From positions 1-55,700 of the forward strand of contig JBBTSB010000002.1 in assembly GCA_038064915.1 (NCBI GenBank): a stretch of DNA of 55,700 nt, in the 5' to 3' direction. The notes under the pieces are model-generated. The model was not told the DNA's origin and ran no database searches. It saw nothing but the letters and a program-made list of their open reading frames with translations. The position numbers and the translations under genes were made by a program. The DNA is from Patescibacteria group bacterium (GTDB taxonomy: Bacteria > Patescibacteriota > Minisyncoccia > 2-02-FULL-40-12 > IGHO2-01-FULL-4-A). This document shows, in pieces, positions 3-25,373 of this stretch. The stretch's first letter is position 1. Every line of letters begins with the position of its first letter.

Positions 3-338
3 GAACGCGGGAGAAACAATTGGGTCGAACCCTTGCGGAATTGGATTTTAGATACGAAACAAGCCGATTTTTTGTCTCATTCTGACAATCTCTACGAGAT
101 TAAAGCGTTTGTGCAAAAAATCGGAACGAACCCTGTGGTTCGTGACAAGTCCGCCCGCTTCGCCGTACCCTCCCCGTTCGGATTCACGGCCAGCCATCGA
201 GCCCGATTGCATCCGTTCGGATCCGTCACGCGCGCGCCCGATTCGCTTTCGGATTCCGAAGTTTCGATTTGCGGAGAGGGTGGGATTCGAACCCACGACG
301 GGCTTGCGCCCGGACGGTTTTCGAAACCGTTGGAATGA
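3..338 (+). CDS. 3' fragment of a gene entering from the left edge; probable C-terminal tail of a site-specific (serine) recombinase family protein, reading antisense into tRNA-Ser(CGA)
   Basis: Frame is open from nt 3 (ERGRNNWVEPLRNWILDTKQADFL...VQKIGTNP) to TGA at 336-338. The tail resembles tRNA-adjacent CPR recombinases from memory only; the catalytic domain is outside the window. Confidence 0.5.
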   Translation, partial: ERGRNNWVEPLRNWILDTKQADFLSHSDNLYEIKAFVQKIGTNPVVRDKSARFAVPSPFGFTASHRARLHPFGSVTRAPDSLSDSEVSICGEGGIRTHDGLAPGRFSKPLE

Positions 339-357
339 ACCACTATCCGACCTCTCC
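272..357 (-). tRNA. tRNA-Ser(CGA)
   Basis: GGAGAGG/CCTCTCC acceptor stem, anticodon arm ACGGT-TT-CGA-AA-ACCGT, long variable arm, GGTTCGAATCC T-arm, discriminator G; no encoded CCA. Confidence 0.96.
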
Positions 358-366
358 AGTATACCG

Positions 367-438
367 TATCCCCGAGAGGATTTGAACCTCTGACCTCTTC
401 CTTCGGAGGGAAGCGCTCTTCCGCTGAGCTACGAGGAC
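367..438 (-). tRNA. tRNA-Arg(CCG)
   Basis: GTCCTCG...CGGGGAT acceptor, anticodon arm CTTCC-CT-CCG-AA-GGAAG, GGTTCAAATCC T-arm. Confidence 0.94.
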
Positions 439-449
439 CTAGTGCTTGC

Positions 450-473
450 ACTGCGAAGCCTTGGCGAAGCAGT
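450..473 (-). repeat. Short palindromic element (ACTGCTTCGCCAAGGCTTCGCAGT) in the tRNA-Leu/tRNA-Arg spacer
   Basis: ACTGC/GCAGT terminal inverted repeat; core CTTCGCYAARGCTTCG is shared with 45615-45630 inside pyrF. Confidence 0.65.
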
Positions 474-556
474 GCTCGGAGTGGGATTTGAACCCACAAT
501 CCCTTGCGGGAGCGACATTTTAAGTGTCGTGCGTATGCCAGTTCCGCCATCCGAGC
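473..556 (-). tRNA. tRNA-Leu(TAA)
   Basis: GCTCGGA/TCCGAGC acceptor, anticodon arm CGACA-CT-TAA-AA-TGTCG, long variable arm, discriminator A. Confidence 0.95.
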
Positions 557-562
557 ATTTTG

Positions 563-635
563 AGGTGGCAGCGGGAATCGAACCCGCGCAATCGCGGTTT
601 TGCAGACCGCAGCGTTTCCACTTCGCCATGCCACC
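563..635 (-). tRNA. tRNA-Cys(GCA)
   Basis: GGTGGCA/TGCCACC acceptor, anticodon arm GCGGT-CT-GCA-AA-ACCGC, discriminator U. Confidence 0.95.
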
Positions 636-2549: not shown

Positions 2550-3296
2550 CTAGTAGTTGTCCGACCTCTGCGGCCGGACTTGCGGGAGGCGCTTGGGCGA
2601 CCGCTCCGGAAGGAACGGGGGTGGAGTTGGAGTGGCGCGGAGACGACTGTCCCGCACCAAATCCTCGATCTTCCACTTGAGATTCCGCACCTCTCGCTGG
2701 ACGTCGCGAAGGGGGTCGGGCGTCGGGGTGGCGAAAGCACGGCGGGTGGGCTTCTTGGCCTTCGCCTTCGCCATGGCCGGCTTCGCAGGCACGGGCCCAG
2801 AGACGGTGGGCGTGGACTCCGGCGTGATGGCTGGGGCGGAAGCCACCCGGGCCGCCATCATCACCTGGGCCACCTGCTTTGCCCAGGGGCTCGTCGCGTA
2901 GTGGTAGCCCCGAAGGTTGGTCAGAACCGAGATCGCCCGCTGGCGCTTGGTTTCCAGCGATGCGTCCGCCTTCTCCGTCCAGTCCATGACCTCGCCAGCG
3001 AGTCTCGCGTACTCGACCTCCTCGAAGTTGTGGCTCATGTTCCATACATCCGAGGATTGCCCGAGATACCAGTTGAGCCGGTCCGCAATATTGCCAGCGA
3101 GGAGCTTTGCTTCAGGGGTTCCAAGACGGGCCTGCCACTGGTAGGCCTGCTCGAGCCGGGCGATATCCTCGTCGTCCTTCCAGTGTGAAGCGAGTTCGGG
3201 AAGCGCCGGCGGGACCGTGCTCTGATCCCGGAAGATGAGCAGCCCGAGGAGGAGGACGTTGATCGCGACGAGACCACCGATAAGCCACTTGGTCAT
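2550..3296 (-). CDS. Hypothetical membrane-anchored protein, GC-rich orphan
   Basis: 248 aa, N-terminal hydrophobic helix, Pro/Thr/Lys-rich linker, GGAGG SD 4 nt before ATG, own promoter. Confidence 0.75.
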   Translation of the reverse strand: MTKWLIGGLVAINVLLLGLLIFRDQSTVPPALPELASHWKDDEDIARLEQAYQWQARLGTPEAKLLAGNIADRLNWYLGQSSDVWNMSHNFEEVEYARLAGEVMDWTEKADASLETKRQRAISVLTNLRGYHYATSPWAKQVAQVMMAARVASAPAITPESTPTVSGPVPAKPAMAKAKAKKPTRRAFATPTPDPLRDVQREVRNLKWKIEDLVRDSRLRATPTPPPFLPERSPKRLPQVRPQRSDNY

Positions 3297-5749: not shown

Positions 5750-6556
5750 ATGCAATTTATCGACATCCATTCACACGTCCAGTTCGTAGCGTACGAAGCT
5801 GACCGCGACGCGGTAATACTGCGTGCAAAAGAGGGGAACACCAAGATGATCAACGTCGGCACGCAAAAAGATACCTCAAAAGCTGCCGTGGAGCTCGCGC
5901 ACCAATATCCTGACATCGCATGGGCGACGATTGGGCTTCATCCCATACACACGAGCAAAAGCTTTCATGACAAAAAAGAGTTAGGCGATGAAGGCGAAGA
6001 TTTCACGTCACGTGGCGAAGTGTTTGATTATGATTATTACCTTGAATTAGGAAAAGATCCGAGAGTGGTAGGCATAGGGGAGTGCGGCTTGGATTACTAT
6101 CGACTAAATCACGAAACACGCAACATACAACATGAAACATTCAAAAAACATATAGAACTAGCACTGGAACTAGACAAGCCCCTAATGATCCATTGTCGTG
6201 ATGCATATGACGATTTGCTTGCAATGCTAGATTCGCGATCACGGGGAAACATTCATTTTTTTGCTGGAAGTTGGGATGTTGCCAGGCGTTTTCTCGATCT
6301 CGGCTTTACGCTTTCATTTACCGGGGTAATCACCTTTGCCGATCAGTACGATGAAGTTGTAAAAAACACACCGCTTGATATGATTCTCACAGAAACGGAT
6401 TCGCCCTACATCACTCCAGCGCCCCTCCGAGGCAAGCGCAATGAACCGGTGAATGTACAATACGTCGTCGCTCGCATTGCGGAATTAAAAGGCCTGCCGG
6501 TCGAACAAGTCAGCGAGCAAATTATGCAAAACGCAAAACGAGTTTTTGGAATATGA
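5750..6556 (+). CDS. tatD: TatD family hydrolase/DNase
   Basis: DIHSH, GLHP, VGIGECGLDY, IHCRDA, ETDSPYITP..RGKRNEP. Confidence 0.93.
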   Translation: MQFIDIHSHVQFVAYEADRDAVILRAKEGNTKMINVGTQKDTSKAAVELAHQYPDIAWATIGLHPIHTSKSFHDKKELGDEGEDFTSRGEVFDYDYYLELGKDPRVVGIGECGLDYYRLNHETRNIQHETFKKHIELALELDKPLMIHCRDAYDDLLAMLDSRSRGNIHFFAGSWDVARRFLDLGFTLSFTGVITFADQYDEVVKNTPLDMILTETDSPYITPAPLRGKRNEPVNVQYVVARIAELKGLPVEQVSEQIMQNAKRVFGI

Positions 6557-6900
6557 AAAAAATTCTGAAAATAATTCTTACCATATTCATAATAGCGCCA
6601 ATAAGTTGGGTTATCTATGTGCTTGCATTTCAAGGCTTTCCTGATAATTATGATTTTTATCGTGATTGCAAAAAGGTTAAAGAGGGCATGACAAAACAAG
6701 AGATACAGATAATCTTGCAAAAATATATCAATGATTCAGAATTTGAAATAGAAGAGAAAAAACCAATAATAAATTATGGAGGGAAAATTATCTACGAGGA
6801 AGAGTGGGAATTGAGTACAGAAGGATTTGCAGATCGGTTGTTCTGTGGAGGATTTTTCAATGATAACATCCTCGTGAAAAAAACAATGACTTTTGATTAA
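6553..6900 (+). CDS. Hypothetical protein with N-terminal TM/signal segment (AT-rich)
   Basis: 115 aa ORF overlapping the tatD stop (ATGA); hydrophobic N-terminus. Confidence 0.7.
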   Translation: MKKILKIILTIFIIAPISWVIYVLAFQGFPDNYDFYRDCKKVKEGMTKQEIQIILQKYINDSEFEIEEKKPIINYGGKIIYEEEWELSTEGFADRLFCGGFFNDNILVKKTMTFD

Positions 6901-6903
6901 CAA

Positions 6904-7431
6904 ATGAAAAAATATTCCCTTCGAAAAATTAAAAAAGAAGTCAATTATGCGTTTATAGACAGCCAGAATTTGAACCTAAGCATTAGAGAACTGGGGTGGC
7001 GGTTGGATTACAGACGATTTCGAATATATCTGAAAGAAAAATACGGCGTCAGCAAAGCGTATCTTTTCATAGGATATGTTGAAGGAAATCAGTGGCTCTA
7101 CACATCTCTTCAAGACGCTGGATTTATTTGCATCTTCAAGCCCACGTTGCAATACAAAGATGGCACCACAAAAGGAAACTGCGATGCTGAACTAGTATTG
7201 CACGCTATGATTGAGTATCCTATCTATAACCAAGCAGTAATTGTAACGGGGGATGGTGATTTTTACTGTCTCGTGGAACACTTGATTGGGCAAAAGAAGC
7301 TAAAGGCAATTCTGATACCAAACAGGTTCAAATTTTCGGCGCTTCTGAAGCTATCATTGGTACGACCCTTTTTGAGATATATGAATGATTTAAAGGAAAA
7401 ATTGGCCCATAAAAAAGAAAAGGCCCCATAA
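6904..7431 (+). CDS. NYN domain (LabA/DUF88, PIN-like) ribonuclease
   Basis: AFIDSQNL, KGNCDAELV, VTGDGDF: the acidic active-site motifs are intact. Confidence 0.88.
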   Translation: MKKYSLRKIKKEVNYAFIDSQNLNLSIRELGWRLDYRRFRIYLKEKYGVSKAYLFIGYVEGNQWLYTSLQDAGFICIFKPTLQYKDGTTKGNCDAELVLHAMIEYPIYNQAVIVTGDGDFYCLVEHLIGQKKLKAILIPNRFKFSALLKLSLVRPFLRYMNDLKEKLAHKKEKAP

Positions 7432-7469
7432 GGACGAAACCTTAAGGGGTGATCTTTTCCGTTGGTGAT
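7411..7469 (-). ncRNA. Predicted ~60-nt antisense small RNA overlapping the NYN 3' end
   Basis: Downstream of a near-consensus minus-strand promoter; hairpin GAAAAG..CCCC.TAAGG-TTTCGT-CCTTA.GGGG.CTTTTC followed by a T-tract. Prediction only. Confidence 0.5.
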
Positions 7470-7475
7470 GATGCT

Positions 7476-7503
7476 AGTATAGACGAATAATCGGTAAAGT
7501 CAA
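7476..7503 (-). promoter_or_regulatory. Antisense sigma70 promoter TTGACT-N16-TATACT
   Basis: 5/6 match at both -35 and -10; no plausible minus-strand gene lies downstream. Confidence 0.62.
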
Positions 7504-16382: not shown

Positions 16383-16453
16383 TCCCGGGTCGTCTAATGG
16401 TAGGACAGTAGCCTTTGAAGCTATTAATTGGGGTTCGAATCCCTGCCCGGGAG
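16383..16453 (+). tRNA. tRNA-Gln(TTG)
   Basis: TCCCGGG/CCCGGGA acceptor, anticodon arm GTAGC-CT-TTG-AA-GCTAT, GGTTCGAATCC T-arm. Confidence 0.94.
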
Positions 16454-24880: not shown

Positions 24881-25306
24881 ATGGATAGAAAAACATTAAC
24901 TATCCTTGGGGCATCGTTATATGCTTGCGTGGGTACCAAAGCACGGAGAGATTTTCGATCAAAAAATCGATATATTTATTCGATGGAGTTAACAAATTCA
25001 GATCCAAACATAATCAGAAGTTTCTCGACTTTCATGAAAGAGATCATCAGAGCCGACTGGAAGCGAGTAAGAGGACAGTTATTTTTTTATCCTGACTTGG
25101 ACGAGAATAAGCTAAAAGCGATTTGGTCTGAAGCGTCTGGTATTCCTATGGATCAGTTTCAAAAATCGATTTGTTTGAAACAAAAAACAGGAAAGTTTAA
25201 AGCAAATCCTTTAGGAACATTTAAAATTAGATATTCCTGTAAAGAGCATTTCTTAAAGCTACAGGAAATGATTGATAATTTGTGGAGAGGTCGCATAGTG
25301 GCCTAG
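24881..25306 (+). CDS. LAGLIDADG-like (homing endonuclease fold) protein of the CPR tRNA-associated type
   Basis: LGASLYACVGTK helix, ELTNSDPNIIRSF..F, KAIWSEASGIP, GTFKIRY; the last codons are encoded by the tRNA 5' end. Confidence 0.6.
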   Translation: MDRKTLTILGASLYACVGTKARRDFRSKNRYIYSMELTNSDPNIIRSFSTFMKEIIRADWKRVRGQLFFYPDLDENKLKAIWSEASGIPMDQFQKSICLKQKTGKFKANPLGTFKIRYSCKEHFLKLQEMIDNLWRGRIVA

Positions 25307-25373
25307 TGCGCCGCCTTGGAAAGGCGGTATACTCGAAAGGGTATCGAGGGTTCAAATCCCTCCCTCTCCGCCA
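25284..25373 (+). tRNA. tRNA-Ser(GGA)
   Basis: GGAGAGG/CCTCTCC acceptor, anticodon arm CCGCC-TT-GGA-AA-GGCGG, long variable arm, encoded CCA. Confidence 0.96.

Follow-up and report, generated by a model that had tools for sequence, protein, structure and literature searches.

A conserved small RNA gene predicted to lie antisense to the 3' end of a NYN ribonuclease gene in Patescibacteria

The NYN gene and the convergent RNA gene of the window

We analyzed a 55.7-kb stretch of DNA from a member of the Patescibacteria (contig JBBTSB010000002.1, positions 1 to 55,700; hereafter the window), in which a gene for a NYN ribonuclease and a predicted small RNA gene on the opposite strand converge and overlap at their 3' ends (Table 1). 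A first-pass annotation of this stretch had described a minus-strand promoter, TTGACT-N16-TATACT, followed by an RNA composed of one hairpin and a U-tract and reaching from ~7469 to ~7411, and we recovered each of these elements where it had placed them. The predicted RNA, AUCACCAACGGAAAAGAUCACCCCUUAAGGUUUCGUCCUUAUGGGGCCUUUUCUUUUUU (7469 to 7411), is expected to fold into a single interrupted hairpin followed by the U-tract (-18.6 kcal/mol; z = -3.1), and a covariance model built from homologous loci finds one copy of it in the window. As had also been claimed, the RNA is complementary to the end of the NYN coding sequence, and the overlap is made up of the stop codon (7429-7431) and the last six codons. 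The same stem can form in the NYN mRNA around the stop codon, another early observation that held. This plus-strand hairpin, which precedes a weaker U-tract, probably terminates the NYN mRNA as well.

Table 1. Positions of the NYN gene, the predicted RNA gene and their parts in the window.
Feature	Position	Strand	Remarks
NYN (LabA-like, PF01936) ribonuclease gene, 175 aa	6904-7431	+	Open reading frame (ORF); shares its final 21 nt with the convergent RNA gene
Small RNA gene, ~58-60 nt	7410-7469	-	Covariance model R1, 85.7 bits, E = 2.7e-17; transcript predicted from 7469 to ~7411
-35 hexamer TTGACT of the RNA promoter	7498-7503	-	Consensus match
-10 hexamer TATACT, 16-nt spacer	7476-7481	-	Ends 6 nt before the predicted start A7469
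Single-stranded 5' tail AUCACCAAC, 9 nt	7461-7469	-	Near-invariant in NYN clade 1; outside the NYN ORF of the window
Outer helix, 5' arm GGAAAAG	7454-7460	-	Pairs with 7416-7422; 97.4% of cells paired; both-side changes in 6 of 7 pairs
Inner helix, 5' arm CCCCUUAAGG	7440-7449	-	Pairs with 7424-7433; compensatory changes in 7 of 10 pairs
Apical loop UUUCGU (consensus UUYCGU within GGUUYCGUCC)	7434-7439	-	Most conserved element over all clades
Inner helix, 3' arm CCUUAUGGGG	7424-7433	-	Includes the complement of the NYN stop codon
U-tract CUUUUCUUUUUU	7411-7422	-	3' arm of the outer helix and terminator tail; plus strand encodes the lysine-rich NYN tail
Plus-strand hairpin, then UCUUUUCC	7416-7460	+	Fold of -20.3 kcal/mol; shared bidirectional terminator, probable terminator of the NYN mRNA

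The protein encoded by the NYN gene matches the Pfam profile PF01936 over residues 17-137 (47.6 bits; cut-off 24.2), and a scan with NCBIfam yielded no match. Its acidic metal-binding residues (D19, D94, D117, and D119), whose motifs had been reported as intact, are invariant in an alignment of 27 NYN homologues. The AlphaFold model (mean predicted local distance difference test, pLDDT, of 82) presents the PIN-like alpha/beta NYN fold and, beyond the Pfam domain, a conserved and confidently modelled C-terminal helical segment (residues ~146-167). Foldseek matched this model to the LabA-like structure 2QIP (E = 1.4e-7), to the T5 flap endonuclease, and to the NYN domain of Marf1 (template modelling scores of 0.58-0.66), and a profile search of the PDB sequences likewise recovered 2QIP. 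By family, fold, and acidic residues, the protein is predicted to be a soluble NYN ribonuclease. LabA/VPA0982 (PDB 2QIP) and Rae1/YacP share its domain, its fold, and the conserved acidic residues of the active site, whereas the subfamily studied here is tight and possesses the additional C-terminal segment. To our knowledge, no partner RNA has been reported for LabA/VPA0982 or Rae1/YacP. Homologues of NYN clade 1 are 72-82% identical and all belong to Patescibacteria (candidate phyla radiation, CPR) among the matches listed. This clade comprises at least 8000 protein clusters at 90% identity; in a library clustered at 50% identity it is reduced to one representative, and 142 clusters were matched at E <= 1e-30.

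The RNA promoter of the window (7503-7476, minus strand) agrees with the consensus at 10 of 12 positions and ranks in the top three of the promoter matches of the first 20 kb. That promoters of the sigma-70 type are in use in this organism is indicated by another minus-strand site (TTGACA-N16-tgtTATAAT; 3399-3372), which matches the sigma-70 consensus at 12 of 12 positions, includes an extended -10, and lies ~70 nt upstream of an ordinary gene that starts at 3296 on the same strand behind a GGAGGTG ribosome-binding site. AT-rich DNA commonly contains promoter-like matches (37 found versus 22 expected), and the hairpin of the RNA gene, which has an A-tract on one side and a U-tract on the other, folds on either strand. 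These observations would fit an ordinary bidirectional terminator beside a chance promoter, or a stem-loop of self-cleavage in the NYN mRNA, similar to that of Regnase-1, with no role for a minus-strand RNA.

Conservation and structure of the RNA unit

We fetched 80 NYN loci from contigs of one genome per species using two NYN peptide motifs. The RNA unit was present at the 3' end of NYN, on the opposite strand, in all 80 of these Patescibacteria loci, and no NYN gene of clade 1 or clade 2 without the RNA was found among them. The consensus of the unit is TTGAC(A/T) - 16-18 nt - TAnnnT - 6-8 nt - AUCACCAAYGGAAAAG - stem - UUYCGU - stem - U-tract. The first-pass annotation had made its proposal depend on promoter and hairpin being conserved across homologues, and the outcome is decisive, since both are kept, with covariation, at every one of the 80 loci. 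A DNA pattern derived from the RNA sequence alone, which did not include the promoter, yielded 85 additional metagenome loci, and the promoters were also conserved in the loci picked in this way.

Promoter statistics were computed over 137 distinct homologous loci. The mean promoter match was 9.9 of 12 positions (6.4 in shuffles), and the -35 hexamer was TTGAC[A/T] at the same position in 111 loci. The spacer measured 16-17 nt in 124 loci, the -10 hexamer ended 6-8 nt before the A of AUCACC in 126, and RNA positions 1-8 were conserved at 94-100%. These comparisons show that the RNA gene has its own predicted promoter of the sigma-70 type and a terminator hairpin that is shared with the 3' end of NYN and overlaps it.

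Just upstream of the -35 hexamer, a DnaA-box-like 9-mer (TTATCCACA or TGTGGATAA, at most one mismatch) was found at 20 of 136 distinct promoters and at none of the 136 in a control window farther upstream. Its orientation varies and it stands 12-20 nt before the -35 (e.g., at loci L047, L200, L062, L217, and L011), and there is none in the 55.7-kb window. This pattern suggests that the RNA may be under DnaA-linked control in a subset of lineages.

The aligned RNAs support a two-helix structure: 96% of the alignment cells fall in standard pairs and both sides have changed in 13 of 17 pairs. None of 500 shuffles reached the observed pairing and covariation, and slid controls dropped to 41-71% of paired cells. 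RNAalifold independently returned the two-helix structure, with compensatory changes in 11 of 15 pairs. The two strands differ markedly in these analyses. Reading the minus strand as RNA gives 135 G·U pairs, versus 11 with the plus strand, and 96.0% of paired cells, versus 86.4%. In the window, covariance model R1 gives the minus strand a score of 85.7 bits and the plus strand one of 12 bits. We therefore take the functional structured RNA to be the transcript antisense to NYN. The conservation of promoter and RNA supports the early claim that a dedicated antisense small RNA with a promoter of its own covers the 3' end of NYN, and from these comparisons the existence of a conserved RNA gene coupled to NYN appears very probable.

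These results bear directly on the terminator explanation raised above. Because the promoter and the tail are conserved, a plain bidirectional terminator is excluded. The position and spacing of the promoter are conserved over two phyla, the region from promoter to hairpin is invariant, and the G·U asymmetry points to the minus strand. Regnase-1 (ZC3H12A) does present a certain likeness, as a NYN/PIN-like RNase with a conserved stem-loop at the 3' end of its own mRNA (autoregulation), but it is a eukaryotic system that lacks an antisense RNA, whereas structural selection here acts on the opposite strand. We consider an explanation without a minus-strand RNA, in either of its forms, extremely unlikely.

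A pseudoknot in which the loop (UUCCGU) would pair with the 5' region (ACGGAA) was also considered and rejected: the two are complementary, but their pairing competes with the covarying outer helix, leaves no linker to cross the helix, and is not restored in variants with G-to-A changes. A possible resemblance of AUCACC to the 3' tail of 16S rRNA, and of the loop to the T-loop of tRNAs, drew support from none of our tests.

The RNA gene also shapes the protein encoded on the other strand. The C-termini of NYN come as discrete forms by lineage (...KKEKAP*, ...KKRPHKDETL*, and ...KKEKAPQGRNLEG*), and these forms are one conserved DNA stretch read in two frames with different stops. Depending on the lineage, the NYN stop lies 20, 36, 41 or 57-64 nt into the RNA gene, and the coding overlap amounts to 20-64 nt in 68 of 71 measured homologues (21 nt in the window). 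Since the same conserved DNA is read in two frames with varying stops, the lysine-rich tail of NYN is dictated by the RNA gene, which bears out the suggestion of the first-pass annotation that RNA structure imposes the KKEKAP tail. Many divergent representatives of the 50%-identity clusters end in KK(E/R)(K/R)P..DET, a tail by which the RNA of the other strand can be recognized. We rejected programmed frameshifting at the A-rich run as a source of these forms, because the tails belong to separate lineages with separate stops and not to one gene.

At the gathering score, Rfam 15 detected only tRNAs in the window. The best sub-threshold match, the trpB motif, reached 30.4 bits (59 required), aligned on the terminator only, and was not retained. 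The tRNA genes of the window are six in number (272-635, minus strand; 16383-16453 and 25284-25370, plus strand), four of which are tightly clustered on the minus strand at the start of the window. We found no description of the NYN-RNA pair in the literature on Patescibacteria NYN proteins, on antisense RNA, on surveys of structured RNAs, or on small RNAs of Saccharibacteria, nor by looking for the RNA sequence itself in the literature.

Age, context and divergence of the pair

We measured selection on a gap-free block of 140 codons in 74 NYN genes. The median proportion of synonymous differences (pS) was 0.88, which is saturated, for a median proportion of nonsynonymous differences (pN) of 0.19, a protein identity of 71%, and an RNA nucleotide identity of 82%. 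Saturated synonymous sites together with a low pN indicate that the pair is old and has been under strong purifying selection, and this saturation rules out a mobile element or a recent horizontal spread. Judged by eye, the RNA variants appear to follow the lineages named in the record titles (e.g., the Peregrinibacteria/Peribacteria type with a TTGATT -35).

In the window, the pair is surrounded by housekeeping genes (methionyl-tRNA synthetase, TerC, TatD, and leucyl-tRNA synthetase). A survey of the neighbors of NYN at 77 loci revealed no conserved neighbor (the largest family was found at 6 loci) and no recurring defense genes. As no other gene family recurs beside NYN, the module appears to consist of NYN and the RNA alone. 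The next gene is usually oriented like NYN, and transcription of the RNA thus runs counter to that of its surroundings. Just upstream of NYN, the window contains a 115-aa ORF (6553-6900, plus strand) that has no Pfam or NCBIfam match and a marginal match to the PADLOC model LmuA (E = 0.0012); this ORF is not conserved beside NYN at other loci.

Among viral contigs (IMG/VR), the 16-mer ATCACCAAYGGAAAAG gave 90 matches, about the number expected by chance by a rough estimate; the hairpin was found in none of them and no full copy of the RNA was recovered. Phage contigs L098 (11232-11247), L110, L123, L135, and L169 present the first 16 nt of the RNA behind a promoter-like sequence. In this group, the site falls within the terminal (3') part of a phage ORF of 488 aa and lacks the hairpin, and we judged it to be a chance match.

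The association extends to diverged forms of NYN. Members of NYN clade 2 are 83-93% identical to the query among the matches listed, and two full-length members present about 44% (tblastn) or roughly 50% (by eye) identity to clade 1. Clade 2 carries its own diverged convergent RNA, with a promoter of the TTGACA-N16/17-TATAAT type, a tail beginning with AUUUCUA, and the architecture and loop of clade 1. At locus L200 (4977-6407), a clade 1 and a clade 2 module stand in tandem, each with its own promoter and RNA variant. Homologues annotated as Omnitrophota present a further RNA variant, AUCACGAUGAGAGG...GGGUUCGUCCC...CCUCUCUUUUU, with the promoter TTGACA-N17-TATACT and the loop UUCGU or UUUCGU; some taxon labels of the metagenome-assembled genomes used in this analysis are unreliable. 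The 5' tail differs by clade (AUCACCAAC, AUUUCUA or AUCACGAU) and is invariant within a clade. The association has a boundary, since no partner RNA was detected for the divergent NYN clade P0319/P0391, which has an acidic C-terminal tail (L270/L271, 679-1290). With translation table 11, the NYN gene of L270/L271 does not yield the query protein, and an alternative genetic code may be in use.

The RNA was also found without an intact adjacent NYN gene, at 14 of the 79 RNA-selected loci that had enough flanking DNA (about 11 distinct). The promoter, tail, hairpin, and U-tract look intact at these loci, and several of them retain a remnant of 15-40 codons of the NYN C-terminus; the search demanded an intact RNA core and decayed copies would escape it. 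At locus L234, oriented here with the RNA on the plus strand (108-165), an ORF for a NUDIX-like hydrolase (125-556, opposite strand) stands in the place of NYN and reads through the RNA hairpin, by which it has captured a ...KKEKTPQGRNLEG tail (i.e., ...AKKEKTPQGRNLEG). At L181, the RNA is followed on its own strand by a DUF3800-like gene; at L235, such a gene is convergent to the RNA.

These solitary copies, often beside only a short remnant of NYN, would be expected of a stand-alone RNA, trans-acting or housekeeping, that has its targets elsewhere and merely shares a terminator with NYN, and the invariant 5' tail does resemble a seed sequence. However, NYN of these clades was accompanied by the RNA at all 80 loci, and the diverged NYN paralogues each keep a diverged RNA and promoter, which a single trans-acting RNA would not need. 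Nor does a complementary site stand out in the window, where the complement of the 5' tail gave 22 near-matches versus 14.9 expected, the best ones within coding regions. These points make an independent trans-acting RNA an unlikely explanation.

Possible antisense control of NYN and its alternatives

The RNA gene has features expected of a convergent cis-encoded antisense RNA, namely a promoter of its own that is conserved in position, an intrinsic terminator with covariation that would define a short transcript, and an overlap with the predicted transcript of the opposite gene. We favor, with about as much confidence as doubt, an ancient two-gene module in which a LabA-like NYN RNase is coupled to a convergent ~58-nt RNA that limits the production of this core RNase by cis-antisense. 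The near-consensus promoter would lead to constitutive synthesis of the RNA, which would meet the complementary hairpin at the 3' end of the NYN mRNA, first through a loop-loop contact (UUYCGU/ACGRAA) that would then extend into a duplex of 45-50 bp. Either the duplex would be cut, probably by RNase III, or the mRNA would lose its protective 3' hairpin, and both outcomes would keep the synthesis of a potentially harmful RNase low.

This layout is similar to that of txpA/RatA and bsrG/SR4 of Bacillus subtilis, which are likewise convergent and whose antisense RNAs can pair with the coding mRNA at its 3' end. The duplexes of these two systems are degraded by RNase III. By analogy with the type I antisense control of Bacillus, pairing over the 3' overlap is most likely the primary mechanism. 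In the Bacillus systems, however, the proteins are small membrane-peptide toxins encoded on prophage-like elements, and the RNAs are 180-220 nt long and poorly conserved, whereas the pair described here associates a 175-aa NYN nuclease with a ~58-nt RNA that contains invariant elements, and it has been kept phylum-wide, apparently by vertical descent. Of the features of type I systems, antisense complementarity is present here; absent are a small hydrophobic toxin and a patchy, mobile distribution with fast turnover, the latter being typical but not strictly defining.

The first-pass annotation had suggested a toxin-antitoxin, abortive or anti-phage function, and a type I module, with NYN as the toxin and an unstable antisense antitoxin as in TxpA/RatA, deserves consideration. 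The genes are convergent and overlap at their 3' ends, their genomic context varies, and cognate pairs occur in tandem (L200). The RNA accompanied the toxin-like partner at every one of the 80 loci, whereas orphan RNAs occur, and NYN has a PADLOC match. This last match is weak and at the domain level (27.5 bits), with no recurring partner genes nearby. NYN is predicted to be a soluble nuclease of 175 aa and not a small membrane peptide such as TxpA. The pair is ancient by its median pS and its ~71% protein identity, and such a phylum-wide lineage under strong purifying selection differs from the fast-turnover genes of toxin-antitoxin systems. It is present in a single copy in the window, amid aminoacyl-tRNA synthetase genes, without a full copy of the RNA on the viral contigs and without defense genes recurring nearby. 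The invariant tail and loop would also be needless for a cis-antisense antitoxin. This part of the early proposal therefore finds little in its favor, and we regard a toxin-antitoxin or abortive-infection module as improbable. The pair has the behavior of a core function of Patescibacteria cells and not that of a mobile toxin-antitoxin or defense cassette.

SymE/SymR and RalR/RalA offer another likeness, namely a nuclease-type protein restrained by a short cis-encoded antisense RNA. In contrast to the RNA described here, theirs overlap the 5' end or the interior of the mRNA, and they are narrowly distributed (enterobacteria and prophage rac). Their protein folds also differ from NYN: SymE is AbrB-like and RalR is a small DNase.

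Several points weigh against antisense control as a full account of the pair. The transcript with its two ends, like any influence that it may have on NYN, is predicted from sequence, and the involvement of RNase III is assumed by analogy. The invariant 5' tail and loop are unexplained by a pure cis-antisense role, and the NYN mRNA probably ends short of the complement of the 5' tail, unless the weak plus-strand terminator is read through. Moreover, the 14 RNA loci without an intact adjacent NYN still keep both promoter and RNA. Because the tail and loop are conserved beyond what antisense pairing needs and because the RNA outlives the loss of NYN, the RNA is probably also recognized by a protein, most plausibly NYN, as an inhibitor, a substrate or a cofactor.

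A possible, if somewhat doubtful, alternative goes further and holds that the RNA acts chiefly as a structured ligand for NYN, whether an inhibitor as in type III systems, a substrate or decoy, or the cofactor of an RNase-RNA particle, and that the antisense layout mostly keeps the two genes linked. In line with this alternative, the loop GGUUYCGUCC is kept over the clade 1, clade 2, and Omnitrophota versions and the 5' tail is clade-specific, neither of them being required for cis-antisense pairing. Each NYN paralogue retains its own RNA, NYN remains ~71% identical phylum-wide despite saturated synonymous sites, and the C-terminal helical extension is conserved and confidently modelled beyond the Pfam domain. 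On the other hand, the binding of the RNA by NYN is proposed from conservation, the conserved loop could instead serve fast RNA-RNA kissing, and the RNA loci without NYN would be partnerless unless a copy of NYN is present elsewhere in the genome. ToxIN (type III) is comparable in that a structured RNA could bind and neutralize an endoribonuclease and in that cognate RNA-protein pairs diverge together. The antitoxin RNAs of ToxIN, however, form tandem repeats that precede the toxin gene on its own strand, and the toxin processes them; none of this was found here: the RNA is single-copy, on the opposite strand, and downstream of NYN.

More tentatively, NYN and its RNA may constitute a dedicated RNase-RNA pair of ancient origin: the protein would bind the RNA as an inhibitor, a guide-like cofactor or a decoy, and the pair would be a core housekeeping component of ultra-small bacteria (Patescibacteria and Omnitrophota).

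Patescibacteria represent a large share of bacterial diversity, possess tiny genomes, and are almost uncultured. We know of no regulatory RNA described for this group, and none was found in the literature searched. The RNA gene defined here, of ~58 nt with a promoter, a covarying structure, and invariant elements, is tied to one of the most conserved among the uncharacterized proteins of the group and is a candidate for a new Rfam family. It provides a clear example of an RNA gene that shapes the C-terminus of a protein encoded on the opposite strand, and it constitutes a concrete handle on RNA-based control and RNA turnover in Patescibacteria. If the RNA does bind the nuclease, the two would represent a new kind of RNase-RNA pair, and the RNA would be a new and widely conserved class of bacterial non-coding RNA with a protein partner.

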